From assembly GCA_015069065.1 (NCBI GenBank), contig SVJI01000001.1, positions 1 through 54,110 of the forward strand: a DNA stretch of 54,110 nt, read 5' to 3'. The DNA is from Oscillospiraceae bacterium (lineage in GTDB: Bacteria; Bacillota; Clostridia; UMGS1883). The notes under the pieces are model-generated. The model had not been told where the DNA came from, did no database searches, and was given only the letters and a program-made list of their open reading frames with translations. Positions 12,833 through 53,297 of the stretch are shown here, piece by piece; the first letter of the stretch is position 1; the number at the start of each line of letters is the position of its first letter. The position numbers were made by a program, and so were the translations under genes.

Positions 12833-14599
12833 TTATATTTTTACATTTGTATCTAAAAGTATTTTTGCACTAATTCCTCCCTTTTCATTTTTTTCATATT
12901 CTAATCCGCACCCCTCGTTGTAGGTGTGTTTAATACGCATTGCTACATTTCTTATTCCAACATGGTATTTTTGCCTGTTTTCGCCGCTTAATATCTTGTT
13001 AAGCGCATCTACTTCACTGCCTTTTCCATCATCTTCTATAGAGATTTGTATGTATTTTCCTTTTCTTTCTACACTAATTTTAATTGAAATACCCTCGCTC
13101 TCGCTCATCCCGTGTATTATGGAATTTTCAACCAGTGGCTGCAATATACATTTCGGTACTTCTATATTGCAAACATCATCAGGTACATCAATATTTAAAT
13201 CAATATTTCCCGCATATCTGTTTCGCTGAAGCATTACGTATTTTCTTACGCATTCAAGCTCCTCGGAAAATTTTGCCGTGATTTTTCCGTCTTTAATACT
13301 GTAGGATAAAATCTGAGAAAGCAAATCAGCCATTTCTCCGATTTCATCTTCGCCTTTTTCTATTGCAAGCCATGATATCGAATCAAGAACGTTATAGAGA
13401 AAATGTGGATTAATCTGTGCCTGCAGCATCTGTATTTCCATTTGCTGCGTTTTTTTGTTCTGCTCATTTTCTCGCTGCTTTGCGGTCACTATCTTATCCA
13501 GCATAATGTTAAAGGAACGATACAGCTCGCCTACTTCATCACGGTTATCTGACTTTACTCTTATTGCATTAAGATTACTATAATCTATTTTTCCCATCGA
13601 ATCTGCAAGTCTTTTTATAGGTCTCGTAAGATAATAGGAGAGAATTATCAAAATTAAAAATGTAGCAATTATAGCTACAAAAATTGCACCTATAACCACA
13701 GTTCTTATATCACTTGCCTTTAGGTATATGCTGTCTAATGGTACAAAAGATACAAAGGAAACACCTATATCCGTTCTTACCATATTAATTACATATTCAT
13801 CGTCCTCAAATGTGTGGGCGACATTAAATCCGATGAGGTTTTCATCCGCAATTTTTTTTACGTAATTATTATCCAATCCATTTTCATTTTTAGCAATTAT
13901 CTGATTGTTACTATCCAGAACCGCCACCATCATATTATCCGAAAGAGAAAGTATCTGCATTTTTTGCAGCAGTTCCAAACAGTCAATTCCTATAATTCCT
14001 ACCCCCATCATTGAGTCATAATTTGTATAAACGGGAATCTGAGCTTTAATTGCTTTTGCAAAATAGATATATTCAGGATTTTCTTCTAATCTGAAAGTAT
14101 AAAACGGACCGTCATTAAAATAAACTTCGTTATACCAGTTCTCATTTTTTATGTGGTTTAAGCTATACATTCCAAATTCAGTATTTTCAAAGGTATTTGA
14201 TTTTACCTTACCAAGTTCCTTTGCCATAGCACATTCATCATTAACATAGAAATGTAGCATATATTCATTTAGCATTGAACCTACCGATAGTTCAAAAAAG
14301 CTTCTGTATTCATTGATAAAATTTGTCTTGTTATTTGAAGCCTCAGTTGACGAATCGGGAACTTTATTTAATGATTTAATCATGAACTCATTGGAGCTGA
14401 TTGCTGCAAAGCTTCGTCCCATTCCTTTAGCAATACTATCGAAACTTTGTTTGTTTTCAAGCATACTCGCCTTTATGTCATTTTTAATCTGAGATACTAT
14501 AATCCTCTCAAATCTTCCATACATAAAGCTACTTAAACAGATTACTACCACCAAAAAGGACGCAAACATCGAGATTAACACTTTTAACCGTATACTCAT
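12833..14599 (-). CDS. sensor histidine kinase, YesM-like
   Basis: Two TM segments flank a ~270-aa outside domain. HAMP region (LTRPIKRLADSM). His-kinase block QINPHFLYNVLDSI. ATPase boxes LQPLVENSIIHG and IEDDGKG. ATGA overlap with the response-regulator stop. Confidence 0.85.
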   Translation of the reverse strand: MSIRLKVLISMFASFLVVVICLSSFMYGRFERIIVSQIKNDIKASMLENKQSFDSIAKGMGRSFAAISSNEFMIKSLNKVPDSSTEASNNKTNFINEYRSFFELSVGSMLNEYMLHFYVNDECAMAKELGKVKSNTFENTEFGMYSLNHIKNENWYNEVYFNDGPFYTFRLEENPEYIYFAKAIKAQIPVYTNYDSMMGVGIIGIDCLELLQKMQILSLSDNMMVAVLDSNNQIIAKNENGLDNNYVKKIADENLIGFNVAHTFEDDEYVINMVRTDIGVSFVSFVPLDSIYLKASDIRTVVIGAIFVAIIATFLILIILSYYLTRPIKRLADSMGKIDYSNLNAIRVKSDNRDEVGELYRSFNIMLDKIVTAKQRENEQNKKTQQMEIQMLQAQINPHFLYNVLDSISWLAIEKGEDEIGEMADLLSQILSYSIKDGKITAKFSEELECVRKYVMLQRNRYAGNIDLNIDVPDDVCNIEVPKCILQPLVENSIIHGMSESEGISIKISVERKGKYIQISIEDDGKGSEVDALNKILSGENRQKYHVGIRNVAMRIKHTYNEGCGLEYEKNEKGGISAKILLDTNVKI

Positions 14600-15651
14600 T
14601 GCTTGACGCCCCCTTTTCTGTGTTGGCGGCTGTATTCCGTAGGCGACATATTCATAACATTTTTAAAAACTTTAGAAAAATAACGAAAATCCTCATATCC
14701 AACTAAAGAAGCAATATATGTAATTGTTAGATCTGTTTCCTTTATTAGTTGCGTTGCTTTCTTAATTTTCTTTCTGGTTATATAATCAACTACAGTACAG
14801 TTTTCATTCTTTTTGAAAAGTGTACCAAGATATGCTGTAGAAATATTAAAGCGATTGGCTACATTGATTGTACTTAATCCTTGTTCTGTGTAATGTTTTT
14901 CAATATAATCTTTAATCTTTTCGATTGTAAGGTTCTCTTTCCTTGACTGCACTGAAATTCCATATCGCATAATATTTTCGTATGTTTCAATAAAAAACGT
15001 TTTATATTCCGCTTCTGAAGTACATTTTCTGAATTCAGAAAGAAGACTCTCTTCAAATGAACGTTCTGGATTTAATTCACGTGCAAATTCAGCCATTATT
15101 TTAAACAGAAACGAATAGTATTCACGTGCCAAAGCATTGTTTATCCTGTTGAAATATTTATCAAGGGTTAAAATGCTATCAATTACTTTCATATCCCGTT
15201 CTACAAAAGCCTTTTTCACAGTTTTCCCGAAATCACTATTATAAATAAGCGATGTCAATTTGCGTTTTTGCTCTTTTTCTTCATTGACTTCAATCATAAT
15301 TTCTGAAAGCTGCTTTAACTTTTCTTTGTTGATAGGCTTTAAAATATACCTTCTGACTCCATATTCTAGAGCCTCCTGCAAAAGCTCAAACTCCTGATAT
15401 GCAGAAAGCAAAATAATTACTGTATCGGGACAATTATTACTTACATATTTACTTAATGACAGACCATCCATCAGTGGCATTTTTACATCCGAAATAATAA
15501 CATCCGCTTCGTGCTGGCTAAGAAATTCCATTACCTCTTTCCCGTTCTTACACACAGCAACCAGTCTTGCTCTAAGCTCTTCCCATTCTATGACTTTTTG
15601 CAATCCGTTTCTTACATATACATCGTCATCAACAATAACAACATCAATCAT
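14596..15651 (-). CDS. two-component response regulator with AraC-type HTH output, YesN-like
   Basis: Start moved to ATG 15651 (MIDVVIVDDD...), preceded by AAGGATGGTGA. The ORF-track N-terminal extension (to 15720) has no SD. Receiver motifs DVIISDVKMPLMDG and ILKP. C-terminal AraC HTH (INVANRFNISTAYLGTLFKK...IASLVGYEDFRYFSKVFKNVMNMSPTEY). Confidence 0.85.
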   Translation of the reverse strand: MIDVVIVDDDVYVRNGLQKVIEWEELRARLVAVCKNGKEVMEFLSQHEADVIISDVKMPLMDGLSLSKYVSNNCPDTVIILLSAYQEFELLQEALEYGVRRYILKPINKEKLKQLSEIMIEVNEEKEQKRKLTSLIYNSDFGKTVKKAFVERDMKVIDSILTLDKYFNRINNALAREYYSFLFKIMAEFARELNPERSFEESLLSEFRKCTSEAEYKTFFIETYENIMRYGISVQSRKENLTIEKIKDYIEKHYTEQGLSTINVANRFNISTAYLGTLFKKNENCTVVDYITRKKIKKATQLIKETDLTITYIASLVGYEDFRYFSKVFKNVMNMSPTEYSRQHRKGGVKQ

Positions 15652-15834
15652 ACTTTCACCATCCTTTTTTATAGACACACCTGTCAATTTTATTCTATCA
15701 CGATAAATAGCAAAGAACAAATGACAAATAATGCCTATATTAATTTGTGAAAATATTGCAAAATTAGGATTTTGTTAAAAACATATAATTTTTATTTTCA
15801 ATTTAATTATAATTTAAGTCATTTCTTCTAACAA

Positions 15835-15873: not shown

Positions 15874-16029
15874 AAACAAATTTGTGCTTAAAGATAATAT
15901 TGCAAGCAAATATTAACCATTCAAAGTTTCCTCTTCAGGACACGATGTCCACAAGTTTATAAAAATCTCAGTATTTACAAAATCAGAAGTGTTATAAACT
16001 GCTATACAAAGCCAAATACAGACGTATTC

Positions 16030-16062
16030 AAGAAGAAATTCCCACGGTGGGAATTTCTTCTT
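16030..16062 (+). terminator. perfect 16-bp hairpin at the left edge of module A (insulator or terminator)
   Basis: AAGAAGAAATTCCCAC-g-GTGGGAATTTCTTCTT followed by GTTTAT. The U-rich 3' arm makes it terminator-like. An imperfect counterpart lies in copy B at about 51077-51106, downstream of the AraC gene. Confidence 0.5.
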
Positions 16063-16139
16063 GTTTATGTGTAATACGCTATTTTTTTATAGAAGAATAA
16101 AATTTTTTTAAAAACTTGCAGAAAAAACAGCTCCACCCA

Positions 16140-16168
16140 TTGCATCGCTTTTGTAAATAGTATATACT
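16140..16168 (+). promoter_or_regulatory. promoter-like site P1 (copy A)
   Basis: TTGCAT, 17 nt, TATACT. It is conserved in copy B as TTGCAA, 17 nt, TATACT. Confidence 0.45.
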
Positions 16169-16177
16169 TGTCTCGTA

Positions 16178-16209
16178 AAAATGGTAAGCAGTTAAAATGG
16201 TAAGCAGTT
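16178..16209 (+). repeat. perfect tandem 16-mer x2 (AAAATGGTAAGCAGTT)
   Basis: Units at 16178-16193 and 16194-16209, about 10 nt downstream of P1. The same sequence occurs in copy B (51224-51255). Confidence 0.9.
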
Positions 16210-16358
16210 AAGCGTATTTTTTGATTTATTTATTCCTACTTTAATGGGATAACTCTGTCCAAAAATCGCTTTTTCATGAATTGAGGTTAATAAACAAAGC
16301 AAAGTGTAAATGCATTTTGACATATATATTGATATTTTGTAAACTTTTGTCAACCTGC

Positions 16359-16387
16359 TTTACATCAGATATTTGGTATGATATTAT
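16359..16387 (+). promoter_or_regulatory. promoter P2 of the candidate ncRNA (copy A)
   Basis: TTTACA (16359-16364), 17-nt spacer ending in TGa, then TATTAT (16382-16387), which gives an extended -10. A perfect TATAAT also overlaps at 16387-16392. The same arrangement is in copy B. Confidence 0.6.
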
Positions 16388-16395
16388 ATAATCAA

Positions 16396-16703
16396 TAATT
16401 AATTTATGCGTGGGGTTCCCGAGGCTTTTCTGTAAAGTCTTAGCATACTAGATGTCGTGATTGTAATTAAAGCCAACGGTATAGCTATGCCCATTTTTAG
16501 GGGATTTACTGTGAACTTTATTAAGTATGATTGTATTTTACACTTTATTTTGAGAATTATTTTTTGAGGTTAATGAAAGATTATGAGTCTATTTAAGTTT
16601 TAACTTAAATGCTCCGAAAAGTCAGCTGTGCTGACAAAGTGAATAAAGAGGTTAAAAGAATGTAGAATTAAATCCAAAATGGATTAGTCTGCATTCTTTT
16701 TTT
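16396..16703 (+). ncRNA. candidate structured ncRNA, ~310 nt, unknown class (copy A)
   Basis: Bounded by promoter P2 and an intrinsic terminator: AGAATGTAGA 16657-16666 pairs with TCTGCATTCT 16688-16697, followed by a T-run to 16703. The 5' ~150 nt and 3' ~90 nt are conserved with copy B around a divergent core. One hairpin is replaced by a different hairpin at the same place in copy B. No SD and no conserved ORF. The 5' end is approximate. Confidence 0.6.
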
Positions 16704-16761
16704 GTCTGAAATACAAGGAGAATTGAAGTCCTACAGGCACTTATTTGTACTGTCTTACTGA

Positions 16762-17038
16762 TAGTCATCGGATAGCCGGACTACATATGGTTTAAAAAGG
16801 GAAATTTCGTATAATACTGCAGAAAATTCTGCAAATATACTTAAGTATTATTCTTGAATTTTCTTTGTCTTATAACAAAATTTCCTCTTTTGAAACTCTC
16901 CGACCTTATATTTAGAAAAATTTTATATAATTTCAATACGGAGGACGAAGATAGGCTGACGCCTTTCAAGGACGACAAGTTGAAAGGATAAAAATTTTTC
17001 AAATATAAGGCATATGCAGTTCGACTATCCGATGACTA
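16762..17038. mobile_element. 277-bp MITE-like insertion with ~28-bp imperfect terminal inverted repeats
   Basis: Present in module A and absent from module B (B reads ...GTACTGTCTTACAAATTAGTGTACGGAC...). Left end is TAGTCATCGGATAGCCGGACTACATATG. The RC of the right end is TAGTCATCGGATAGTCGAACTGCATATG. A second internal inverted repeat is CCTTATATTTAGAAAAATTT / AAATTTTTCAAATATAAGG. No ORF. TA lies at both junctions. Confidence 0.65.
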
Positions 17039-17132
17039 AGTGTACGGACAAAGGATAATGAATGAATCAAACGATTTTAAAACGCAAAGTTTTTAACAGG
17101 TTTGTATGCACCTGAAAAGATTAGGCAGAATC

Positions 17133-17185
17133 TTGACGCAGTAGCGGCTGCGGAATATTTTACATATGTCACCGCTATGACATAT
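17133..17185 (+). promoter_or_regulatory. promoter-like site P3 plus 8-bp inverted repeat (candidate operator) upstream of xis-int (copy A)
   Basis: TTGACG (17133-17138), 17 nt, TATTTT (17156-17161). Immediately after it comes ATATGTCA-ccgcta-TGACATAT (17164-17185). Both elements occur with the same sequence in copy B. Confidence 0.4.
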
Positions 17186-17411
17186 TTCAGCATCTGCAAT
17201 ATCATTGGAACGCACCTGAGTTTAGCAGGTATGATGCTACCGCAGAGTTTATACTCACCCATATAGGGTTGCGGGAATATTACTAACCGGGCAATATGCC
17301 AATAGATAATACAAATCATACTAAATGGAGACAGAGATAATAAACACACCTCAATATACCGATATAAATGAAAATATAATTAATTCATATCGGGAAACAG
17401 AGAGGTAACGG

Positions 17412-17570
17412 GTGCTTTCCGTAAAGCAGCTTTGTGAAATACTTGGCATAGGTAAAAATTCTGCATACAAGCTGTTACAAAGCGGAGAGATTAAATGTAT
17501 AAAGATTGGTAAGGTATACAAGATACCGAAAAAATATTTAAAAGAATATATCACCAAATTTTCTAAATAG
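17412..17570 (+). CDS. xis: excisionase-family HTH DNA-binding protein (52 aa, GTG start)
   Basis: Below the ORF-track length cutoff. GTG at 17412 follows AGAGAGG. Translation (M)LSVKQLCEILGIGKNSAYKLLQSGEIKCIKIGKVYKIPKKYLKEYITKFSK matches the 53115..53297 protein at about 38 of the 44 aligned positions (by eye). The pattern is typical of MerR/Xis-type helix-turn-helix_17 proteins next to integrases. Confidence 0.75.
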   Translation: MLSVKQLCEILGIGKNSAYKLLQSGEIKCIKIGKVYKIPKKYLKEYITKFSK

Positions 17571-17639: not shown

Positions 17640-18761
17640 ATGTCTGGTAGCCTACAAATAAAAAACGGCAAATATTATGCCGTTATCAGTTATAAAAATG
17701 AACAAGGAAAACGCAAGCAAAAATGGATAAATACAGGATTTGAAGTAAAAGGCAACAAGCGAAAAGCCGAAGACTTTTTGAAAAAACTTCTTGTGCAAGA
17801 AAACGATTTTTCAGAAGTAAAGCCTGATATATTATTTTGCGACTATATACAAAATTGGCTTGAAAAACGAAAAAACGAGGTTGAAGATTCCACTTGGCAA
17901 GGATATTCCAATGTAGTAAAAAATCATATATATCCTTATTTTTCTGAAAAGAAAATAGAATTAGCTAAAATATCTCATAAGGATATAGAAAAGTATTATC
18001 ACCACAAGCTTGAACAAGGTCTATCCTCCGGCACAATTAAAAAGCATCATGCCAATATACGAAAATGTCTTCAACAGGCTTTAATGGAAGATTTGATTCC
18101 TGTAAATTATGCAGACAGAGTTTCGCTTCCTAAAATTGAACAATACAATGCGTCTTTCTTTGATTCAGAAGAAATTAAAGTTCTGTTAGAAAAAGCTAAA
18201 GGAAATGAAATCGAACCTATTATCATTCTTTGTGTGTATTATGGTTTACGGCGTTCTGAAGTTTTAGGATTAAAATGGGATGCCATTAGCTTTAAAAATA
18301 ACACTATCAGGATATGCAACACTGTCACCTATATGTATGAACTTTGCGAAAAAAAGCGCACAAAGAATACAAGCAGCTACAGAACTCTCCCCTTGATTAC
18401 TGTTGTGAGTGAATACTTACTGTCACTAAAAGGGCAACAGAAAGAAAATCGTAAGCTTTTCGGAAACTGTTATCAGGAAAACGACTATATATGCGTAAAA
18501 ATTGATGGCAGTAGAATTTCTCCACATGCTGCATCACGCAAGTTCAGAAATTTTCTGCAAAAAAATGGTTTACCGCATATACGGCTTCACGATTTAAGGC
18601 ACAGTTGTGCATCACTCTTAATTGCACAGGGTGTAGACATAAAAGTTATACAGGAATGGTTAGGTCATTCTTCCATTGCAACAACGGGAAACATTTATGG
18701 ACATCTGCAATTTAAGCAAAAGATAGAAACAGGAATTGTGCTCGAAAATCTGCTTGCTTGA
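17640..18761 (+). CDS. int: tyrosine integrase with N-terminal arm-binding (AP2-like) domain
   Basis: ATG at 17640 after GGAAAGGAG. N-terminus SLQIKNGKYYAVISYKNEQGKRKQKWINTGF. Catalytic set: R in YYGLRRSEVLGL, HDLRHSCAS, and WLGHSSIATTGNIYGH. Confidence 0.9.
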   Translation: MSGSLQIKNGKYYAVISYKNEQGKRKQKWINTGFEVKGNKRKAEDFLKKLLVQENDFSEVKPDILFCDYIQNWLEKRKNEVEDSTWQGYSNVVKNHIYPYFSEKKIELAKISHKDIEKYYHHKLEQGLSSGTIKKHHANIRKCLQQALMEDLIPVNYADRVSLPKIEQYNASFFDSEEIKVLLEKAKGNEIEPIIILCVYYGLRRSEVLGLKWDAISFKNNTIRICNTVTYMYELCEKKRTKNTSSYRTLPLITVVSEYLLSLKGQQKENRKLFGNCYQENDYICVKIDGSRISPHAASRKFRNFLQKNGLPHIRLHDLRHSCASLLIAQGVDIKVIQEWLGHSSIATTGNIYGHLQFKQKIETGIVLENLLA

Positions 18762-18820: not shown

Positions 18821-18866
18821 AAAAAAATAGAGAATGGCATAACCTACGATGGTTAAGCCATTCTCT
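18821..18866 (-). terminator. intrinsic terminator downstream of the tRNA fragment
   Basis: On the minus strand, AGAGAATGGC...GCCATTCTCT (18857-18866 pairs with 18829-18838, plus inner TAACC/GGTTA pairs) is followed by T7 (complement of A7 at 18821-18827). Confidence 0.7.
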
Positions 18867-18867
18867 C

Positions 18868-18923
18868 TGGTGCTCGAGACCGGGATCGAACCGGTACGTC
18901 TTTATGGGACACGGGATTTTAAG
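18868..18923 (-). pseudogene. 3' fragment of tRNA-Leu(UAA), anticodon loop to CCA; candidate att remnant
   Basis: The RC reads CTTAAAA-TCCCG-TGTCCCATAAAGACGT-ACCGG-TTCGATC-CCGGT-CTCGAGC-A-CCA. These are the anticodon loop with UAA, the 3' anticodon stem, a long variable arm, a canonical T arm, the acceptor 3' strand, discriminator A and CCA. The sequence 5' of the loop (..AAGCTTT) cannot pair with TCCCG, and no GCTCGAG acceptor 5' strand or D arm follows. Confidence 0.75.
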
Positions 18924-19062
18924 AAAGCTTACCCGTTGATTACACTACATTATCTAAAATTATACAAAGCCTTACAAACCCTTTTGTTAAGCGGTTTATA
19001 AGGCTTTCTGTCTGTAAAATCCTTTTAAATCCAAAGAGTCTCAAAAACGAATTTTTTTCGAT

Positions 19063-19159: not shown

Positions 19160-20302
19160 ATGATTTCTTCATATGAACTAAAACTATATGATGAAACTCT
19201 CTTAACTTTTAATATGGCTGAAAAAGGTTTGGAAGGTCTTGTTGCTGAAATTGATTATATAGATAAAGATAAGAAAAATATCTTCCCTTTGGATTTAGAG
19301 GTATCAAATGCAGGAATTATTAAATGGCTTAGAAAACGTGTTATTCCAAAAAACCGAAGATTCGTAGATGAAATATTAAAAACGCTGAACTTATCTCAAA
19401 ACGATACAAAAGGTATAATCGACGTATGTAAAGGCTTATCACTTAACGATAGTTATTGGGTTGTTCCAAAAGGGTTTGAAGGTAAATTTTCGGAATATAA
19501 TCTATATGAAAACAGATTTTCTGAAATTCTGTCTTTAGTTGCATACACAGGCGTAGGCAGTTCAAACAAAGCATTTTCAACATCTCCTGAACTAACTACT
19601 AATGGAATGCTTCCTAAAGCATGGCGCTTTGTAGAAAACGATGGTATATATCTTTATAAAGGCGGAACCGACGGAGCTGTTAATTCAGGTAAAGAGCCTT
19701 ACAGCGAGTATTATGCAAGTCAGATTGCCGCAGCAATGGGACTTAACGCAGTAAAGTACGAATTAGAAAACTGGAAAGGAATTCTTGCCTCTAAATGCAA
19801 ATTATTTACCGATATTGATACTTCTTTTATTCCAGTTGGAAGAATTGTTACGGACGGAGGAATTGCTGCTTGTCTGGAATATTATAAGAGCTTAGGAAAT
19901 GAATTTTACGAGCAGTTAAAAAGTATGCTTGTATTTGATGCCGTAATTTACAACGAGGACCGTCATTTTGGTAATTTTGGTATTTTAAGAAATAATCACA
20001 CTGGCGAAATTCTGGCTCCGGCACCTATATTCGATAATGGTCTGTCGCTATTTAATTTTGCAATGGATGAAGATTTTAAGGATTTAGAATCTTATGCTAA
20101 AACACGTACTACCCCATACGGAGTATCTTTTGAAACAATTTGCACAGAAGCAATCGGCAAAAAACAGATTTCTGAATTACGTAAATTAATTGGATTTAAA
20201 TTCAACCGTCACAAAACAATGAACCTATCAGAAGAAAGATTGTGTTCTATTGAAAAATTGCTGCAAACGAGGATATCTCAGCTTATATCTTTAAGCAAAT
20301 AA
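19160..20302 (+). CDS. HipA-like kinase-domain protein (no HipB-type partner seen)
   Basis: ATG after GAGAGGAGGA. The C-terminal half contains VIYNEDRHFGNFGILRN and PIFDNGLSLF, which match the HipA_C catalytic-loop and Mg-binding patterns (D-x-H-x-x-N ... D-N/F-G). The only plus-strand gene between the tRNA fragment and locus 2. Confidence 0.6.
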   Translation: MISSYELKLYDETLLTFNMAEKGLEGLVAEIDYIDKDKKNIFPLDLEVSNAGIIKWLRKRVIPKNRRFVDEILKTLNLSQNDTKGIIDVCKGLSLNDSYWVVPKGFEGKFSEYNLYENRFSEILSLVAYTGVGSSNKAFSTSPELTTNGMLPKAWRFVENDGIYLYKGGTDGAVNSGKEPYSEYYASQIAAAMGLNAVKYELENWKGILASKCKLFTDIDTSFIPVGRIVTDGGIAACLEYYKSLGNEFYEQLKSMLVFDAVIYNEDRHFGNFGILRNNHTGEILAPAPIFDNGLSLFNFAMDEDFKDLESYAKTRTTPYGVSFETICTEAIGKKQISELRKLIGFKFNRHKTMNLSEERLCSIEKLLQTRISQLISLSK

Positions 20303-31292: not shown

Positions 31293-33840
31293 AGTTTTTA
31301 TCCCCGATTTGTTTATTTAATTCAAAGTCCTCTGCAACCGGTTCCAGATTGCTTTTCCAACAAAATACTCTGGCTTTTGATATTTTTCCGTTATTTATTT
31401 CCGGTAAGTTCACAGTTTTATATCCATCATTTTTTACACTTACGTCAATTACTCTCATATCACATAATTGACCGTCTGATGAATATAGTGCTGCGTAAAC
31501 CTTCAAGCCAAGATCTTCTCCTGTATAGTTACCTATGTTAACAGTGCCTTTTAACGCACCGTTTTCCTGAGTATCAATATAACCACTGAAGGCTATCTCG
31601 TCCTCGATAATTTCGTTACAGACAACAACAAGGCATACTTCGTCATTTTTACGGTCATATGCATATAAATTATACATGCCCTCATGAAAATCATCTAATC
31701 TTATCCTTGACGCAAACATACCATTTTCGTCAGGAACATACATAGATAAAAACAGTATGTTTCCTGTTGAATCAGTTACTTTAACCGGTACACCTACACC
31801 ACTTTCACCTTTACCTACAAAGCATAATGTCTGATTTGCCTTATCGATATATGATGAAATAATAACATCGTTGTTTACCTTTGCATACTGCACAATCATG
31901 CTGCTGCTATCTAAAGTAACAATCGTGTCACTATCTTCATTTGAGCCGGTAATCAAAAAATGATATATACCATCACCGTCGTACTTTACACTTATGTTTT
32001 TGAGCTTATCTTCACTTTCTGCCCAACTAAGTGCCGTAGGAACTGAAATACTATCTGAATATTTATATGCTGATACTGCAAATTTATTATTGTCTTCAAG
32101 CTGTGCTTTAACTTCTGCATCCTCTGCCAAAACATTAATATTAAGCACGGAATTATCATTATAAAATGTGAAGCTTCCGTCCTGCTGTTTATTAGCTGTC
32201 TGCACAGCAGGATAAAACCGTATTTTTAAATCATTCTCAGTATCAGTCTTCGCTTCATCAAAAATCAGCAAAACATCAGGCTTAACATATATAAAATGCC
32301 GCACATATTTGTCAACACCGGTTTCCTCTCTATATGCTTCCGTTCCATCCGCTGCTACATACACATAGTCTTCCTGTTCATCAAATTTTATTATATGCGG
32401 ATTTGCCTTCGATGCAGCTATAACGTCCTTGTTGTAAAGGTCATACTGTCCGTCATCATTAACGGTAAGAGTATTATGCCATCTGGTATACCCCTTTGCA
32501 TACCCATCGTCTACAATCTGTAAGTCTTTATAAGCAAACAGCATAAAACTGTTTATATCAGGATGTGAATGGGTCAGCCCTAAATTGTAAGTTTCATCAA
32601 AGCCTTTATTAATAAAGGCTTCTCTTGCTATTGTACCCATAGTAGGGCCACATCTGAAGGCAATCACTGATTCCTGATTAAACCATACATTTCTCAAAAA
32701 AACAAAACCAAGCTGTTCAAAGAACTTATTGTTGGGATACTTATCACTTTCCCAGGGAGCTAAACTATCAGAATCAGGCTGATAGTATAAAAATAGCTGC
32801 CACATTTCATTTCTATGCCCCGCAGTTGAATTATCAATTCCATACTCAACATACCACTGCACAACGGGATTTTGGCTGATGTCAGCCAAATATGACATAT
32901 TTGAAACCCAAGAAAGATTATTATTTTGTGTACTGTCACCGAAGTTAAACACACCTATTATATGTTCATTTTTTCCCATTTGCGGAAGTCGTGTATAAAT
33001 TCCGTAATCAGCAGTATTTTGCAGAAACGGGTGCGTTGCATAGTCAATATTACAAAACTGCTTTGCAGTTTTAACGTAATATATAAGATGCGTTAATCCA
33101 TAGCTCCAATATGATGGGCCTTCCTGATATGTACCCTCTGTATTAATAAACGAAAACGTTTTTGAAAACCAATTATTAGACGTATTAAACCAGCTTTCTG
33201 CTTCGGAATATATATCATAAATTGCAGCAGCTGTTACAGCAAGTGATGATGCAGGTGTCCAGTAAAGGTTTGATAAATACTTTCTTTCCCACCAGCCGCC
33301 ATTATTCATAATACTGCCACGTGCAATAAGTAGTGTTTCTATCTCCTGCCTTTGAGTGATAGACAGGTCATGATACAGCCAATCATAGTAACATGATATG
33401 CCAACAAGCATATGCGATGCTGCAAGACTACAGTTTTCAAATTTTCCCCTTCCCCATGAAGGATAGCTTTTTGCTGCATTGAAGAACAATGCAGCAGCAT
33501 CCTTATACTCCTGTTTCCCAGAAATTTTGTACCCGAGAGAAAGCTTCATTATTGCATCTCCCACTGTACGCATCCACGTTTCTTCTATATTTGAATCAAC
33601 ATAATACTGCGTAGGTCCATCAACAACATACGTGCTTAATTCAGTTTCAAGCGCTGACCAGATATCTTTAAGCCTGCCATTGGCAAGTATACGTGCTCTG
33701 TCAAAATCCGCCTCGTCCATAATTACACGTGGATGTATATTAGTGTATTCATCCAGATTATTTTCTACGGCATATGCATTTATCTGTAAAAGAACTATAA
33801 TAAAAACTGTTAGCAAAACATAAAAACGTATTTTTCTCAT
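31285..33840 (-). CDS. secreted heparinase II/III-family polysaccharide lyase with C-terminal beta-sandwich
   Basis: Signal peptide MRKIRFYVLLTVFIIVLLQINAYA. Motifs HPRVIMDEADFDRA, SLAASHMLVGISCYYDWLYHDLS and GLTHSHPDINSFMLFAYKDLQIVDDGY. The last is the Hepar_II_III H-x-H-x-D...DxG-Y block. Confidence 0.8.
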   Translation of the reverse strand: MRKIRFYVLLTVFIIVLLQINAYAVENNLDEYTNIHPRVIMDEADFDRARILANGRLKDIWSALETELSTYVVDGPTQYYVDSNIEETWMRTVGDAIMKLSLGYKISGKQEYKDAAALFFNAAKSYPSWGRGKFENCSLAASHMLVGISCYYDWLYHDLSITQRQEIETLLIARGSIMNNGGWWERKYLSNLYWTPASSLAVTAAAIYDIYSEAESWFNTSNNWFSKTFSFINTEGTYQEGPSYWSYGLTHLIYYVKTAKQFCNIDYATHPFLQNTADYGIYTRLPQMGKNEHIIGVFNFGDSTQNNNLSWVSNMSYLADISQNPVVQWYVEYGIDNSTAGHRNEMWQLFLYYQPDSDSLAPWESDKYPNNKFFEQLGFVFLRNVWFNQESVIAFRCGPTMGTIAREAFINKGFDETYNLGLTHSHPDINSFMLFAYKDLQIVDDGYAKGYTRWHNTLTVNDDGQYDLYNKDVIAASKANPHIIKFDEQEDYVYVAADGTEAYREETGVDKYVRHFIYVKPDVLLIFDEAKTDTENDLKIRFYPAVQTANKQQDGSFTFYNDNSVLNINVLAEDAEVKAQLEDNNKFAVSAYKYSDSISVPTALSWAESEDKLKNISVKYDGDGIYHFLITGSNEDSDTIVTLDSSSMIVQYAKVNNDVIISSYIDKANQTLCFVGKGESGVGVPVKVTDSTGNILFLSMYVPDENGMFASRIRLDDFHEGMYNLYAYDRKNDEVCLVVVCNEIIEDEIAFSGYIDTQENGALKGTVNIGNYTGEDLGLKVYAALYSSDGQLCDMRVIDVSVKNDGYKTVNLPEINNGKISKARVFCWKSNLEPVAEDFELNKQIGDKNYE

Positions 33841-36455: not shown

Positions 36456-39400
36456 CAGTTTACCCCTCCTTTTTCAGTAAAGTACACTTCTGCTATACTG
36501 TTCCAAGAACTAACCGAATTACCTTTACAATAAAGTCTTACATATCTTCCGGTTGCTCCCTCCATATCAAATTCTTCAAATCCGTCAGTTGTACCACTGC
36601 TTTCACAGGATTTTACAGTCTTAAATCTTGAGCTTTTATTCTCATTGGAAATCTGAATATCAAAATATCCCTTTCGTGCGGTACCGCTCTGGAACGCAAT
36701 ATTAAGCTTATCAAATTTCTTTACAGAGCCAAAGTCAAATGTAATCCATTCGGTATATCCCTGTGACGACCATCTTGTTCCCATTTCACCATCATAAATA
36801 TACTCACCGTAGTTACCATCTGAACCTGAATATGTGATATTATATACATCCATATTACCAAAACCACGTATTGATTTTGTATGGATAACCAATTCCTGAG
36901 AGCTTGTACCGTCAACCGACGTTACCTTTACCTTACTGGTGCCAAACAAATCCTCGGATTTTTCAACATCTACAACTGCAAGGTTTTCATTAGGAACCGC
37001 ATAAATTTCAAGTTCTGAGCCGTAAATATACGCCTCGTACTCATTTTCCGTGCCTTCAATCAGGGTTGGTTTCACACCATTAACAGATAGAGAATAGAGA
37101 CCTGAGTCACTCAACAAAACATTTGTGAATATATTTATCACACTGTTTTCATTATCAATCTCTGTATATGCATTGAAATATTTTAACACCGACTGAAGCG
37201 AAAGCATCAAACTACCGTCTTTTACCATAGCTGCACGCTCCATATTATCGGGTTGACCATTAATGATGGCAGTATTACTTCCCGCAGTAAATTCAATAAC
37301 ATTTTTTTCATCTGACAACTGAACCTTTTGACCGTTATTCTCAGTCTTTACAGAAAGATTTAACAGCTCGGCAAACTTTTGGGCATCCATCATATCGAGG
37401 TCTTCGTATTTTGTATCATATACTTCTTTGATAACTTCATCTACTTTTACTACAGTAGCGTTGCTGTAATCATCAATTTTTACAGAATTATTTTCAATAT
37501 CTATGCTAATACGCTTTTTCCCGGTATTGAAAACTCTGCATTTTCCATCATTGCTTTCCTCTGAAATAAACGGCGTTTCCTGACCCTTAGGTGCCCATGA
37601 AAATGCCACAGGCTGTACCCACTCATTCGACTTATATGAAAGATACACACACATTTTATCCTTTGAAGCGACTTCTGTTCCGTGTCTTTCTGTCGTATCA
37701 TATGTTGCCTGACCGCCTGCCGTAGCATATGCACCATCGGCAACAAAAGGCTTTACATTGAGCACTGAATTATCGTTATTAAACGTATAACTGCCGTCAC
37801 GGTTTGTTACAACGTTCTGAACATAGGTAAAGTAACGAAGCTCCAACAAGTCATCCTTGTTAGCTGATTTAATATCATCAACAACGTAAAGCATATCATC
37901 ATTTTTCATATAAAGAATATGACGAACAAATTTTTCAAGTCCGGAATGTTCCAGGTAAGCTGCAGTACCATCACAAACAACATAAGTATAATCATCTGTT
38001 ACTTCGTAATGAATGATTTTGGGATCTGCAAGAGTTGCCTTTATTATGTCATTTGTTTTCGTCGCCTTTGCATCGTAACCATTATACTGACCTATTCCAT
38101 TAACTGTAAGTGTATTTTGTGTAGAGGTGTAGCTTACAACATAACCGTCATCTACAATCTGCCTGTCACCATATGCAAACAGTAAAAGGCTGTTAACATC
38201 AGGGTGAACGTGAGAGAGTCCGAGATTCCATGTTGTATCACGATTATCCTCTGTATATACCTTCATTGCATTATGTCCCATTGCAGGACCACATCTTACC
38301 GCAAACGCAGAACGATTATCATCCCATGCTGTTCTGCTGAAAACAAAGCCCATATCGTCATAGTAATTACTTGTAGAATAATTTTCAACATATGACTCTG
38401 CCTCAAGTGTTTCATCATAATAAAGAAGGTTTTTCCACATTTCGTATCTGTGACCCGCTGTACAATTTTCCATTATATAATGAACAAAATCCTGTACAAT
38501 TTTGTCATCAGTATAATCTGCAAAAAATGCCATACATGGCACATACTCCAATGAGCTTGTAGTTGCCGAATCAGAAAAATTAAATACACCAAGTATTGCA
38601 CCTGTCTTTGCGTCACCTAATCTTGGTAATCTTAAATCCATACCGAATCTTGAAGTCTTTTGTATATAAGGAACATCGGAAAAATCCATATTTAAAAAGT
38701 TCTTTGCTATGTTAAGATAATATACAAAGCTCTCCATCGCATATGACCAATATCCGGCACCTTCCTGATTTGCGCCGTCCACAGATATGTAACGGAATGT
38801 CCTTCCAAAGTATTCATTTGCAAATCTAAACCAATTCTCTGCATCCTTGTACTCGTCAAAAATGGCAGCGGCTACAACAGGTATGGAACCTGCACCCGTA
38901 TAATGCAGATTTGAAAGAGGCTTTCTTTTCCATGATTTTCCGCCCTTACTCATGATTGAGCCACGTTCTACGAGAATATTCAAAGCATTGTATCTGTCTG
39001 TAGCTGACAAATCATGATACAGCCAGTCGTAATAACAAGCAATACCAACAAGGGCATGGCTTGCCGCAAGACTGCTGTTTTCATAGTTGTCTCGTCCCCA
39101 TGCAGGATATTCGCACAGCTTATAGAAAAACTTTACAGCAGCATCCTTATATTTTTCATCGCCCGATATTCTATATACATAGCTGATTTTCATAAGGTCA
39201 TCAGCCACATCACGAATCCATGTTTCACCGCCATCACTTACTCTGTGATAATCGGGTGCGCCTTCTTTAATAACTGTATCTACATCTGCAACAAGAGCTT
39301 CATAAATATCCTTTAATTCACCCTGTGCCAATTTTTTGCTATGTTCAAATCCCTCGCTGTCAAGTAAAACTCTCGGATGAACACCACGGTATTTATCCAA

Positions 39401-50076: not shown

Positions 50077-50118
50077 AATCAAAAATTGATGCTATATTTA
50101 CTATTAGGAGGAAGGAAA

Positions 50119-50967
50119 ATGCAATCTTTGCAAACATTTCTTGATATACTTACCAAAGGACGAAAACTCCATATTTGTGTTCATGATATATCCGGATTGC
50201 TGAAATCTCCAGAAAGATATCTTCCTTTCGAGTATCAGATACATTCAAAGAAGTTTTGCAATATTGCTAAATTCACAGAGCAAGGACTTGATTTTTGTCT
50301 CAATGCAAAAGACAAAGCGAATAATAAAGCAGTAAATGACGCTAACTCGTTTTGCGGACACTGTCCTTGGGGACTTTTTGAAGTGGCTCAACCGATTGTA
50401 CAAGATAAAAGTGTACAGGGAATTATATATGTTGGAAATTTCATTATAGATGAAAAAAAAACCAAAGAGCATATAATAAGAACAAGCAAGCTTTTAAATG
50501 TATCTCCTGAACCATTTTTTAATATGATTAACGAATGTGAAAACTTAACTGATATTTCTGAAGCTTTTCAGATAGCAGAAATTGTAAAGGACTATCTTTT
50601 GATGTTACCCTTTGAGGAACGTTCACAGTCCTCAAACAAACAATGGCTCGTTCGCAATATCAAGCACTATGCAAATGAATATTATGAAAAAAAGCTTTCT
50701 TTAAAGACGATTTCAAAGCTTTACTTTGTAAACGAAAAATATATAGGTAGGCTTTTTAAGAATCAGGTGGGAATGAGTTTTCACCAATATCTCAACGAAA
50801 TTCGTCTCAAAAAAGCTGAAGAATTACTGATAAATACCGATAAACAAATAATTGACATTGGAATAAAATGCGGATTTGAAAACGTCTCCTATTTTAATCG
50901 TATATTTAAACAAAAATATGGTATTACACCTACGGTCTTTCGTGAGGTTAACAGAAAACTCATATAA
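50119..50967 (+). CDS. AraC-family regulator with PocR-like Cys-rich sensory N-domain
   Basis: Start moved to ATG 50119 (AGGAGGAAGG upstream). N-domain carries FCNIAKFTEQGLDFCLNAKDKA...FCGHCPWGLFEVAQPIV. C-terminal AraC HTH (ISKLYFVNEKYIGRLFKNQVG...IGIKCGFENVSYFNRIFKQKYGITPTVFR). Confidence 0.8.
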   Translation: MQSLQTFLDILTKGRKLHICVHDISGLLKSPERYLPFEYQIHSKKFCNIAKFTEQGLDFCLNAKDKANNKAVNDANSFCGHCPWGLFEVAQPIVQDKSVQGIIYVGNFIIDEKKTKEHIIRTSKLLNVSPEPFFNMINECENLTDISEAFQIAEIVKDYLLMLPFEERSQSSNKQWLVRNIKHYANEYYEKKLSLKTISKLYFVNEKYIGRLFKNQVGMSFHQYLNEIRLKKAEELLINTDKQIIDIGIKCGFENVSYFNRIFKQKYGITPTVFREVNRKLI

Positions 50968-51185
50968 ATAGGCTCTATTTATATTGTAGATTCCAAAAAT
51001 TCTATAAAAAGTCTTATTGACAAAAGCAATAGTCCTATAAACCGTTATATAAAGCCAAATACTGACGCATTCAAAAAGAAATTCCCACGGGGGGGATTTT
51101 CTTCTTTTCTATGTGTAATTACTATATTTTTTATAATTAGAATAAAAAATTTTCAAAAAACGTGCAGAAAAAACAGCTCCACGGA

Positions 51186-51214
51186 TTGCAATGCTTTTAT
51201 AAGTAGCATATACT
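51186..51214 (+). promoter_or_regulatory. promoter-like site P1 (copy B)
   Basis: TTGCAA, 17 nt, TATACT. Confidence 0.45.
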
Positions 51215-51223
51215 TATCTCGTA

Positions 51224-51255
51224 AAAATGGTAAGCAGTTAAAATGGTAAGCAGTT
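51224..51255 (+). repeat. perfect tandem 16-mer x2 (AAAATGGTAAGCAGTT), copy B
   Basis: Units at 51224-51239 and 51240-51255, with the same sequence as copy A. Confidence 0.9.
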
Positions 51256-51405
51256 AAGCGTTTTTTTGATTTATTTATTCCAACTTTAACGGGATAACTA
51301 TGTCCAAAAATCGCTTTTTTATTTTTTTGAGGTTAATTAAACAAAGTAAAGTATAAAGGCATCTTGACAGATTTGTTGTTAAATTGTAAACTTTTGTCAA
51401 TCTGA

Positions 51406-51434
51406 TTTACAACGGCTATGTGGTATGATATTAT
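51406..51434 (+). promoter_or_regulatory. promoter P2 of the candidate ncRNA (copy B)
   Basis: TTTACA (51406-51411), 17 nt ending in TGa, TATTAT (51429-51434). Confidence 0.6.
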
Positions 51435-51442
51435 ATAATCAA

Positions 51443-51754
51443 TAATTAATTTATGCGTGGGGTTCCCTGGACTGACAAAGTCAGTCCTAGCATACTAGAT
51501 GTCGTGATTGTAATTAAAGCTAGCGGTATAGCTATGCCCATCTTTAGGGCATTTACTGTGAGCTTTATTAAGTATGATTGTATTTTACACTTTAAGTTAA
51601 TAAAGAATATGAGTTGTTTTAGTTAATCGGCAGGCAAAATAAGCCTATATTGACTTGAAATAGTTCCGAAAAGTCAGCAATGCTGACAAAGTGAATAAAG
51701 AGGTTAAAAGAATGTAGAATTAAATCCAAAAGGATTAGTCTGCATTCTTTTTTT
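51443..51754 (+). ncRNA. candidate structured ncRNA, ~310 nt, unknown class (copy B)
   Basis: Same promoter and terminator as copy A (AGAATGTAGA 51709-51718 pairs with TCTGCATTCT 51739-51748, T-run to 51754). Conserved 5' and 3' domains. Divergent core at 51595-51664. Confidence 0.6.
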
Positions 51755-51925
51755 GTCTGAAATCCTAAAAAGGAAGAATTGAAGTCCTACAGGCATTCTT
51801 TTGTACTGTCTTACAAATTAGTGTACGGACACAGGTTAATGAATGAATTAAGCAATTTTAAAACGCAAAGTTTTATCGGGTTTGTATGCGTACACTTTTG
51901 AAATCCGAAAAGATTAGACAGAATC

Positions 51926-51978
51926 TTGACGCAGTAGCGGCTGCGAAATATTTTTCATATGTCACCGCTATGACATAT
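51926..51978 (+). promoter_or_regulatory. promoter-like site P3 plus inverted repeat (copy B)
   Basis: TTGACG (51926-51931), 17 nt, TATTTT (51949-51954), then ATATGTCA-ccgcta-TGACATAT (51957-51978). Confidence 0.4.
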
Positions 51979-52234
51979 TTCAGCATCGGCAATACCAATA
52001 CCATTTGGAACGCACCTGAGTTTAGCAGGTATGATGCTACCGCAGAGTTTATACTCACCCATAAAGGGTTGCGGGAATATTACTAACCGAGCAATATGCC
52101 GATAGATAATACAAATCATACTAAATGGAGACAGAGATAATAAACAACCCTCAATACACCGATATAAAGGGAAATATATTTATTTCATATCGGGAAAAGA
52201 AGAGGTAACGGGTGTTAAAGAGAACGATATTGCT

Positions 52235-53131
52235 ATGTCTGAAAGAAAGGATCTTCAGATGACTAACTTATATAAAAATTTAGAAACTCAATTCAACAAA
52301 GTATTCAGACATTTAAAGACAGGCAGCTTTAAAACAAGAGAACGTTATGCAAAAGCTTTTAAAAGATTTATGGTATATTTTGCAAAAGAATATCATCTTC
52401 AAAAGCTTTCAAACATTTCTGAAAAGCACATACTTTCATATCTGAACTACTTACAGAAAAAAGGTAATGCTGCATCAACAATAAAAACAGAACTTGCAGC
52501 TATACGCTTTTTCCACGACAATCTGCCTTATGCAAAATATACTCTGCCGACAAATGACGAGCTTGAATTAAAAAGACGTACATTTGGTGGAGTAGACAGA
52601 AGCTGGGACAGTAGAGAATACAATCTTATGGTAGCAAAAGCAATAGAAACTAACCATAACGATTATGTTGCTATTCTTACTCTTGCAAGGTACGCAGGAC
52701 TAAGACTTGAAGAATGTTTTCGCATTGATACAAATGATGCGGAAAAAGCACTTCAAACAGAGAAGCTATTTGTTAAAGGTAAAGGCGGTCTTACAAGATA
52801 TGTGCCTATTAACAAAAGCATTGAAATTGCACTTGCAAATTCTCTTAAAAATGTAAAACGTGGAGAAAAGTTATTTGTAAGAAACAACGACAAAACCCAT
52901 CTTACAATGAAAAGACTTCAATGTTTTATCGCATATCACAGAAAAGAAATTACCGAAGAACGTATTACTTTTCACGGATTACGCCATACATATGCACACG
53001 AAAAGTATAACGAGTTCATAAACAGTGGTAAAAATGAAAAAGAAGCACGGAGAATGGTATCCGAGCTTCTGGGGCATCACAGAGATGATGTAACAAGAAT
53101 ATATCTCTACGGCGGTGATGAGAATGTTTAA
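52235..53131 (+). CDS. small tyrosine recombinase (XerC/D-like, no arm-binding domain)
   Basis: SAM-like N-domain (RERYAKAFKRFMVYFAKEY...ASTIKTELAAIRFFHD). Catalytic set ARYAGLRLEE, HGLRHTYAH and LLGHHRDDVTRIYL. The start may instead be the in-frame ATG at 52259, which overlaps (ATGA) the stop of a 16-codon leader ORF beginning at the module GTG (52212). Confidence 0.85.
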   Translation: MSERKDLQMTNLYKNLETQFNKVFRHLKTGSFKTRERYAKAFKRFMVYFAKEYHLQKLSNISEKHILSYLNYLQKKGNAASTIKTELAAIRFFHDNLPYAKYTLPTNDELELKRRTFGGVDRSWDSREYNLMVAKAIETNHNDYVAILTLARYAGLRLEECFRIDTNDAEKALQTEKLFVKGKGGLTRYVPINKSIEIALANSLKNVKRGEKLFVRNNDKTHLTMKRLQCFIAYHRKEITEERITFHGLRHTYAHEKYNEFINSGKNEKEARRMVSELLGHHRDDVTRIYLYGGDENV

Positions 53132-53297
53132 TTCTTACCCCGATGTTTTATCTGTAAAGCAGCTATGCGAAATACTTGACATAGGCAAAAACACCGCATA
53201 CAAGCTGTTACAAAGCGGAGAGATAAAGAGTATAAAGATTGGAAAGGTATATAAAATACAAAAAAAATGTTTGAAAGATTTTTTAAACAATCGTTAG
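53118..53297 (+). CDS. xis: excisionase-family HTH DNA-binding protein
   Basis: ...LSVKQLCEILDIGKNTAYKLLQSGEIKSIKIGKVYKIQKKCLKDFLNNR is homologous to 17412..17570. Start uncertain (ATG 53118 or 53124). It overlaps the recombinase stop. Confidence 0.75.
   Translation: MRMFNSYPDVLSVKQLCEILDIGKNTAYKLLQSGEIKSIKIGKVYKIQKKCLKDFLNNR

Follow-up and report, generated by a model that had tools for sequence, protein, structure and literature searches.

What is the non-coding unit of about 310 nt, bounded by a promoter and a terminator, that occurs twice in the analysed stretch of 54,110 nucleotides (the window), each time upstream of genes for an Xis-like protein and a tyrosine integrase (Int)? A first-pass annotation made from the sequence alone had proposed a single structured RNA class of this length, dedicated to tyrosine recombinase modules, with a regulatory role such as the control of excision or, more speculatively, a part in site choice. 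Our follow-up shows a different composition. The unit is a mosaic, in which a mobile leader is joined to a terminator, T2, that looks like an insulator owned by the recombinase cassette.

The two copies and the larger repeat

Copy A (16396-16703) and copy B (51443-51754) were both confirmed at these positions in the sequence, with folding z-scores against dinucleotide shuffles of -2.95 and -5.11, respectively. The repetition is thus real, but it is not limited to some 310 nt, as the units are a segment of a 1.2-1.6 kb repeat (15972-17570 versus 51015-52214 plus 53151-53290) with 84-97% identity. The same general arrangement upstream of xis-int holds for both copies too, although neither unit directly adjoins these genes. 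In copy B a 480-nt conserved non-coding stretch and a gene for a 298-aa XerD-like recombinase separate the unit from xis, and in copy A the XerD-like recombinase gene is deleted and a 265-nt MITE-like insert (16759-17024) lies directly 3' of the terminator.

The repeat and its surroundings contain several further features. MITE-like inserts of 170-275 nt with terminal inverted repeats (GTCATCGGATAGCC...) are present in the window (16759-17024) and in two of the loci collected for comparison, which are cited here by their L numbers (L006, 858-1132; L005, 1857-2018). They occupy three different sites of one non-coding module in the three loci and are 70-77% identical to one another; that of L006 abuts terminator T2 on its upstream side. 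Upstream of the leader, a 16-nt tandem direct repeat (two times AAAATGGTAAGCAGTT, then AAGCG and a T-run) at 16175-16206 and approximately 51221-51252 is kept even in the distant cassette L024 (4184-4216) and might serve as an arm-type site bound by a protein. The repeat also has, some 50 nt in from its left border, a hairpin whose stem (CAAGAAGAAATTCCCAC/GTGGGAATTTCTTCTTG; 16029-16063 and 51078-51100) is 16 bp long and which may either terminate transcription arriving from the host or belong to the end of the element. A gene for an AraC-family regulator borders the left end of the module in the window (14596-15720 and 50086-50967) as well as in L013 (2330-4582), which may be a coincidence in AraC-rich genomes or reflect an insertion preference. 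Elsewhere in the window, direct repeats at 33362-33531 and 39006-39175 (104 nt at 76% and 54 nt at 70% identity, 5.6 kb apart) sit within large minus-strand genes and probably represent paralogous domains.

A promoter-proximal leader with a three-way junction

The extended -10 promoter described in the first-pass annotation is recovered by a consensus scan in front of both copies, and the 5' part of the unit that follows it comprises these elements:

16359..16387, forward strand: promoter of copy A, TTTACA-17-TG-n-TATTAT (extended -10; consensus scan, 10 of 12 matches with TG)
51406..51434, forward strand: promoter of copy B, TTTACA-17-TG-n-TATTAT (consensus scan, 10 of 12 matches with TG)
16405..16447, forward strand: three-way junction of copy A (RNAalifold and covariance-model alignment, 18 distinct homologues)
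16405-16409 / 16443-16447, forward strand: helix P1 of copy A, TATGC / GCATA
16412-14 / 16418-20, forward strand: helix P1a of copy A, GGG / CCC
16421-28 / 16434-41, forward strand: helix P2 of copy A, GAGGCTTT-tctgt-AAAGTCTT, enclosed by TATGC/GCATA
16448..16468, forward strand: single-stranded linker of copy A, CUAGAUGUCGUGAUUGUAAUU, near-invariant in 17-18 homologues
16469..16522, forward strand: T1 hairpin of copy A; the upper part of its 5' arm contains the invariant CUAUGCC
51452..51569, forward strand: leader of copy B, consisting of a junction with P2 GGACUGAC/GUCAGUCC, linker and T1-like hairpin (covariance-model match)

The closing helix TATGC/GCATA noted earlier is thus present in copy A, and in the consensus leader this helix, P1 (UAUGC/GCAUA), is built around P1a (GGG-GUU-CCC) and P2, with junction strands of 2, 0 and 1 nt. 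P2 is replaced in copy B, which has GGACTGAC-aaa-GTCAGTCC where copy A has GAGGCTTT-tctgt-AAAGTCTT; the covariance model nevertheless matches the leader of copy B from 51440 to 51577 with 157 bits. The linker (CUAGAUGUCGUGAUUGUAA) is unpaired in the consensus folds, those of truncated alignments included. In relatives in which the leader precedes an SSB gene (ssb-type loci), the homologous T1 is a full intrinsic terminator with a tract of U7-9. Its U-tract is degraded in the window copies (CUUUAUUAAG), and copy A also lacks two pairs of the lower stem.

A sigma-70-type promoter directly precedes the leader in every copy. Those of the ssb-type loci are perfect TTGACA-17-TATAAT promoters with a palindrome, CACAATATATTGTG, in the spacer. 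The perfect palindrome CACAATAT(A/G)TTGTG lies between the -35 and -10 elements in L015 (2590-2620), L016 (755-785), L028 (2115-2150) and L035 (3783-3811), and in L028 a cI-like HTH gene (1407-1958) is divergent from the leader promoter and adjoins the palindrome. The spacer palindrome of the ssb-type leader promoters looks like a repressor operator.

Covariation and the functional strand

Covariation among collected homologues, proposed at the outset as a check of the RNA, was found. Among 18 distinct homologues, many of them closely related and all aligned by fitting to the covariance model (R1), standard pairs occupy 96.2% of cells and 16 of 25 pairs are altered on both sides. None of 500 shuffles equalled the observed pair values, and slid controls paired in 34-52%. 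P2 has both-side changes in 8 of 9 pairs and at least five independent versions, and the hairpin replacement first seen between copies A and B is both real and recurrent. In the T1 lower stem, of which several versions exist, 7 of 8 pairs covary. P1 and P1a vary little, apart from one P1 pair, for which nine sequences have A-U and the other nine G-U. G-U pairs occur on the forward strand only and are frequent beyond P1 as well, which identifies the promoter strand as the functional one.

Consensus folds (RNAalifold) of truncated alignments gave no conserved antiterminator or other alternative helix. Two candidates picked out by eye were rejected: a competition of two UAUGC boxes for GCAUA is unsupported, as L048 has UAUAC and no compensating change, and a pairing between tail and linker is AU-rich and inconsistent and was dropped.

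Distribution of the leader

Relatives were retrieved through homologues of Xis, the recombinase and SSB and by pattern scans, and amount to few loci of modest diversity. When the non-coding part of copy B was used in nhmmer searches, the whole unit proved common to L005, L006, L012 and L013, L019, L024 and L025-27 matched only from T2 onward, and L020-22 matched only over the final ~320 nt; in close relatives the non-coding module is 80-88% identical. A scan of genome contigs with two N-terminal peptides of the recombinase alignment added 3 loci. An unbiased scan of metagenome contigs for an exact 19-mer yielded 5 loci whose conservation is confined to the promoter and the first ~125 nt. The leader stands with its own intrinsic terminator ~50 nt before the SSB gene in L014, L015 and L017, before an unannotated gene in L016 and before a different xis-int pair in L018. 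All further ssb loci found through SSB homologues have the leader as well, followed within ~80 nt by a covarying hairpin with U7-9 and then by a Shine-Dalgarno sequence and ATG. Downstream, the ssb operons encode CobS-like AAA and CobT/VWA-like proteins; upstream of the ssb-type leaders lie genes for unannotated proteins of 147-227 aa, a sigma factor and a DUF3268 protein. A weak model match (29.4 bits, E ~1e-4) in MT835792, an unverified 'Bacteriophage sp.' record, probably places the leader also before a ligase/NADAR/LPD11 operon. The rec-xis-int genes are preceded by the leader in the window, L005, L006, L012, L013 and L019. In every case the leader has the orientation of the downstream operon and lies immediately before it.

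These findings do not agree with one RNA class of about 310 nt, as recurrence as a unit is limited to the 5' ~125 nt and T2 is also found in cassettes that lack the leader. Nor is the RNA dedicated to tyrosine recombinase modules, since the leader mostly precedes ssb operons with no recombinase nearby. Judged by these contexts, the leader is an element of mobile-element operons in gut and rumen Clostridia. The carrier of the ssb operon may be a phage or a conjugative element. The 1.7 kb module had no blastn match in phage and plasmid collections, viral contigs scanned three times for exact patterns had none either, and the Xis relatives found in viral contigs (53-55% identity) are without the module. 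Contigs L030-L034 each begin inside the leader, 123 nt before ssb, and L007-L010 and L012 begin inside the module; such contig breaks suggest that the sequence is repeated within genomes or communities.

The middle part and terminator T2

The remainder of the unit consists of the following:

16523..16653, forward strand: variable middle part of copy A, with hairpins UUUAAGUU/AACUUAAA and GTCAGC-TGT-GCTGAC
16654..16703, forward strand: terminator T2 of copy A, AAAAGAAUGUAGA...UCUGCAUUCUUUU and U-tract (RNAfold)
51570..51754, forward strand: middle hairpins and T2 (51706-51754) of copy B

The middle part is kept only in close relatives, and copy B swaps one of its hairpins for a different, long one. 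The GTCAGC-nnn-GCTGAC hairpin reported before is present at 16621-16635, its loop being TGT in A and AAT in B. The strong terminator seen at the end of both copies is likewise borne out by RNAfold, which predicts a hairpin of 13+5 bp followed by U7 in each; a simple terminator scanner misses it because of the internal loop. Since T1 is degraded in the window copies, T2 is the effective terminator there. T2 is invariant in close relatives, and terminators homologous to it open the shared region of the distant recombinase cassettes L019, L024, L025 and L018. As it is thus common to leader-less cassettes, T2 looks like an insulating terminator owned by the cassette, comparable to the insulating T1 of Tn916 (PMC11658703). 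In the 3' half of the window unit no covariation was seen among 5 sequences, a comparison that is uninformative because these sequences are too similar.

The recombinase cassette and its tRNA sites

In relatives, the standard cassette is made up of the non-coding region, a XerD-like recombinase of 290-298 aa, an HTH_17 Xis and an integrase of 375-400 aa. Its counterparts in the window are:

52235..53131, forward strand: XerD-like tyrosine recombinase, 298 aa, copy B only (Pfam Phage_integrase and SAM-like domains)
17412..17570, forward strand: Xis-like HTH_17 protein, copy A (Pfam PF12728)
53115-53297, forward strand: Xis-like HTH_17 protein, copy B (Pfam PF12728)
17640..18761, forward strand: tyrosine integrase A (IntA), 373 aa (Pfam)
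from 53380 and past the window end, forward strand: integrase B (IntB; Pfam)
18868..18925, reverse strand: 3' half of tRNA-Leu(UAA) with its own terminator, an att-side remnant 3' of IntA (read from the sequence)
17165..17288, forward strand: sub-threshold match to the xerDC RNA motif (RF03062), copy A (27.9 bits; gathering score 72.5)

The cassette is widespread: the XerD-like recombinase belongs to a large family, with 2215 relatives at E<=1e-20, and its gene lies upstream of HTH_17 and Int in every relative inspected. Comparison of 17400-17420 with 52215-53150 shows that copy A cleanly lacks the 298-aa recombinase gene together with the first xis codons, and that its Xis is left with 52 aa and a GTG start behind the upstream region of the recombinase gene. 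IntA and IntB are 42% identical, and the integrases overall 31-79%.

A complete tRNA gene follows the integrase on the opposite strand in L005, L008, L013, L020 and L025, which marks the cassette as the tRNA-proximal end of an integrated element. The window contains no complete tRNA; a full tRNA-Leu(taa) is found at the matching position in L005, L008 and L020, and the half tRNA-Leu(UAA) of the window suggests that this att site was rearranged or received a second insertion. The remnant spans the anticodon loop to CCA, with a hairpin terminator at ~18835-18867, and beyond it lies a HipA_C-like gene (19160-20302). Candidates for the att core are an 11-nt sequence found by eye, TATACAAAGCC, and a 15-nt repeat in L005, both of which may be chance.

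Between T2 and the recombination genes, a stretch shares the blocks GAGUUUAGC, UGCGG and UACUAACC with RF03062. The corresponding stretch of copy B (~51958-52088) has no RF03062 match at E<=1, and a match in L024 (4723-4841) reaches 42.7 bits, again below the gathering score of 72.5. The region 17165-17288 is at most a divergent relative of RF03062; it probably serves the XerD-like recombinase gene as a leader of a diverged xerDC type.

A leader that may control terminator read-through

Promoter, structured leader, intrinsic terminator and downstream gene follow one another on a single strand, as in an attenuating leader. A terminator placed directly after a conserved leader is useful only if its read-through is regulated, which argues for regulated read-through here. 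We therefore give an even chance to a reading in which the unit, as the cis-acting 5' leader of an operon in a mobile element, permits polymerase to read through T1 and T2. Among the roles initially suggested for the RNA, control of the expression of excision genes is the best reading.

By analogy with the systems discussed below, such a leader might work as follows. Transcription would start ~10-15 nt upstream of P1, in relatives from a promoter under a palindromic operator that in one case adjoins a divergent cI-like repressor gene. The nascent RNA would fold into the compact three-way junction, followed by the invariant single-stranded linker. Polymerase would next encounter, in ssb-type operons, T1 alone, immediately before the gene. 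In the window it would first reach a T1 of reduced strength and after that T2, which is strong and stands where the cassette for XerD-like recombinase, Xis and Int begins on its upstream side. The leader would determine if read-through takes place, either via an element or host factor, in a nut-like manner, or by modification of polymerase, as for put, EAR, conAn2 and canT. The lack of a conserved alternative helix, together with a junction nearly devoid of unpaired nucleotides, favours such a platform for a factor or polymerase over a metabolite riboswitch. Polymerase in the window would cross T1 and T2 and the xerDC-like stretch and proceed into rec-xis-int (B) or xis-int (A), and expression of the excision and integration genes would be coupled to the signal that induces other leader-bearing early operons. 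We infer the transcription past T2 into the recombination genes, its conditional nature and the nature of the factor involved.

Several observations speak against a cis-acting leader. T2 may simply end an RNA of ~310 nt, promoter-like sites are present downstream at 17133-17205, and the leader-less cassettes L020 and L025 must own a promoter. No candidate antiterminator protein was identified. The alignment is model-fitted and contains many close relatives, and the 3' half lacks covariation. Finally, with T1 degraded in the window copies, T2 alone would have to carry the regulation.

Alternative explanations

Could the transcript instead be a stand-alone small RNA (~310 nt in the window, ~125 nt at the ssb-type loci) that targets mRNAs of the element or the host in trans or else titrates away a protein, while the downstream genes are served by other promoters? 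The clean promoter-to-terminator layout and the promoter-like sites beyond T2 would fit, and the invariant single-stranded linker might be a seed region. Then again, only about 50 nt without a convincing -35 separate T1 from the ssb Shine-Dalgarno sequence, so that ssb expression seems to need read-through. Moreover, the leader is always co-oriented with, and immediately before, an operon, and no target complementarity was found. We thus hold a small RNA to be possible but clearly less probable than a cis-acting leader.

A far-reaching extension of the cis-acting leader is that it serves as a shared regulon tag, namely as a processive antiterminator RNA, factor-dependent or self-sufficient, of the early operons (ssb/CobS/CobT, ligase/NADAR) of a larger element. 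It would have been acquired also by a minimal tRNA-integrating cassette of 3-4 kb, which would then excise only on induction of the larger element. We regard this as unlikely; if true, it would amount to satellite-helper eavesdropping at the RNA level.

A conserved structured domain followed by an intrinsic terminator before genes is also what would be expected of a small-molecule riboswitch, with the junction as aptamer and T1 as expression platform. However, junction strands of just 2, 0 and 1 nt leave little unpaired, the consensus folds of truncated alignments contain no conserved helix that competes with the terminator, no Rfam riboswitch matches, and ssb, recombinases and ligase have no common metabolic theme. 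In our view this makes a riboswitch quite improbable.

The setting in mobile elements, with ssb adjoining, might also point to a function as single-stranded DNA, such as a single-strand origin or a Frpo-like single-strand promoter that acts after conjugative entry or rolling-circle replication. The hairpins are indeed strand-dependent, and DNA tolerates G-T pairs as well. But the canonical double-stranded promoter before every copy and the conserved T-tract after a covarying hairpin are signals at the RNA level, and the window has no relaxase or Rep gene nearby, so that we deem such a function very unlikely.

Even less can be said for a guide or specificity RNA of the adjacent tyrosine recombinases, after the manner of the IS110/IS1111 bridge or seek RNAs, although the unit adjoins recombinase genes in the window and has one variable hairpin. 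Most copies lie before ssb operons in recombinase-free surroundings. P2 is fully paired and independent of the integrase type, being common to copy B and L013, whose integrases are 31% identical; the site of L013 is a tRNA-Lys gene. Complementarity to att-side DNA extends over 8-11 nt at most, compared with a shuffled mean of ~9.6, and is thus not above shuffles, which speaks against the role in site choice that had been considered.

That the unit encodes a small protein has next to no credibility, as the first-pass annotation had already judged: the ATG frame of 57 codons in copy B and a GTG frame, VIVIKA(N/S)GIAMPIF, kept between A and B have to be set against an ATG frame that ends after 9 codons in A, the lack of a Shine-Dalgarno sequence, P2-loop indels of 1-2 nt that shift the frame among homologues, compensatory substitutions in the helices and a downstream region that is wholly replaced in ssb-type copies.

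Implications

To our knowledge, the regulation of mobile elements in uncultured gut and rumen Clostridia is essentially uncharted. That one leader precedes excision genes as well as early operons of the ssb type suggests that transfer and excision share a switch. Support for the predicted structure is good, and the distribution over several kinds of operon is unusual. The mosaic nature of what appeared to be a recombinase RNA matters for any RNA family that is built from it.

Comparison with known systems

No Rfam family accounts for the unit. The search against Rfam 15 that had been proposed for it gave no match at the gathering threshold in the window, and under permissive settings neither the two copies nor the ssb-type leaders had matches above chance level. 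The nearest entry by gene association is xerDC (RF03062), a candidate cis-regulatory RNA of Clostridia that likewise precedes genes for XerD/XerC-type recombinases. The two are separate elements, however: xerDC has no match in the 310 nt themselves, and its sub-threshold match lies 460 nt downstream of the 310-nt unit.

The STAXI RNA motif, named for its association with Ssbp, Topoisomerase, Antirestriction and XerDC Integrase, is a tandemly repeated pseudoknot of Bacteroidales. It resembles our leader in its mobile-element gene partners, ssb and integrases, but differs from it in this tandem pseudoknot architecture and in its host range, and the leader has no match to any Rfam model.

In function, the proposed mechanism is closer to processive antitermination. 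The lambda nut and HK022 put sites similarly combine a promoter-proximal hairpin module with a conserved single-stranded box, followed by terminators, and a single element carries them in more than one of its early operons (PMC8191782, together with general background). Sequence and fold differ, the fold here being a three-way junction, as do the hosts, which here are Clostridia; no N-like or other candidate antiterminator protein was identified. The conAn2 RNA acts in cis as an antiterminator at the start of conjugation operons of Gram-positive plasmids (PMC8191782). As with our leader, the RNA of the ConAn1/conAn2 system lies close to where a mobile-element operon begins, and it lets polymerase pass intrinsic terminators (PMC8191782). 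conAn2 is 260-600 nt long, lies downstream of the conAn1 gene and needs a GC-rich tract and stem-loops (PMC8191782), a structure unlike that of the leader; no recognisable conAn1-like gene precedes the leader, and in the window the interval from the left border to the leader lacks any ORF of >=60 aa.

The most similar arrangement is that of canT in Tn916, a cis-acting processive antiterminator RNA just upstream of xis (Wirachman & Grossman 2024, PMC11658703). canT, too, is a non-coding region of a few hundred nt that is orientation-specific, lies directly before xis-int in an integrative element of Firmicutes and works together with terminators that insulate the element genes from unwanted transcription. 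The window, L005, L006, L012, L013, L018 and L019 likewise have a co-oriented non-coding region before xis-int, although in most of these arrangements an extra recombinase gene and the xerDC-like stretch intervene. The likeness does not extend to detectable homology, as models R1 and R2 have no match in the orf8-xis region of the Tn916-type locus L050 (2040-2500) and side-by-side reading of this region gave none either. canT also differs in that it has no promoter of its own and is read from Porf7, whereas the leader has its own. The leader core is shorter (~125 nt) and precedes ssb and other operons as well, and its function would be assigned by analogy. If the leader does control read-through, it would join the very few RNA-based antitermination or attenuation devices of mobile elements (put, EAR, conAn2, canT) as a compact element of defined sequence. 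By this comparison the leader appears nearest to canT, conAn2 and nut/put in function and position and to xerDC and STAXI in gene association, and we suggest that it represents a new RNA motif of a familiar type, a terminator-controlling leader of mobile elements.
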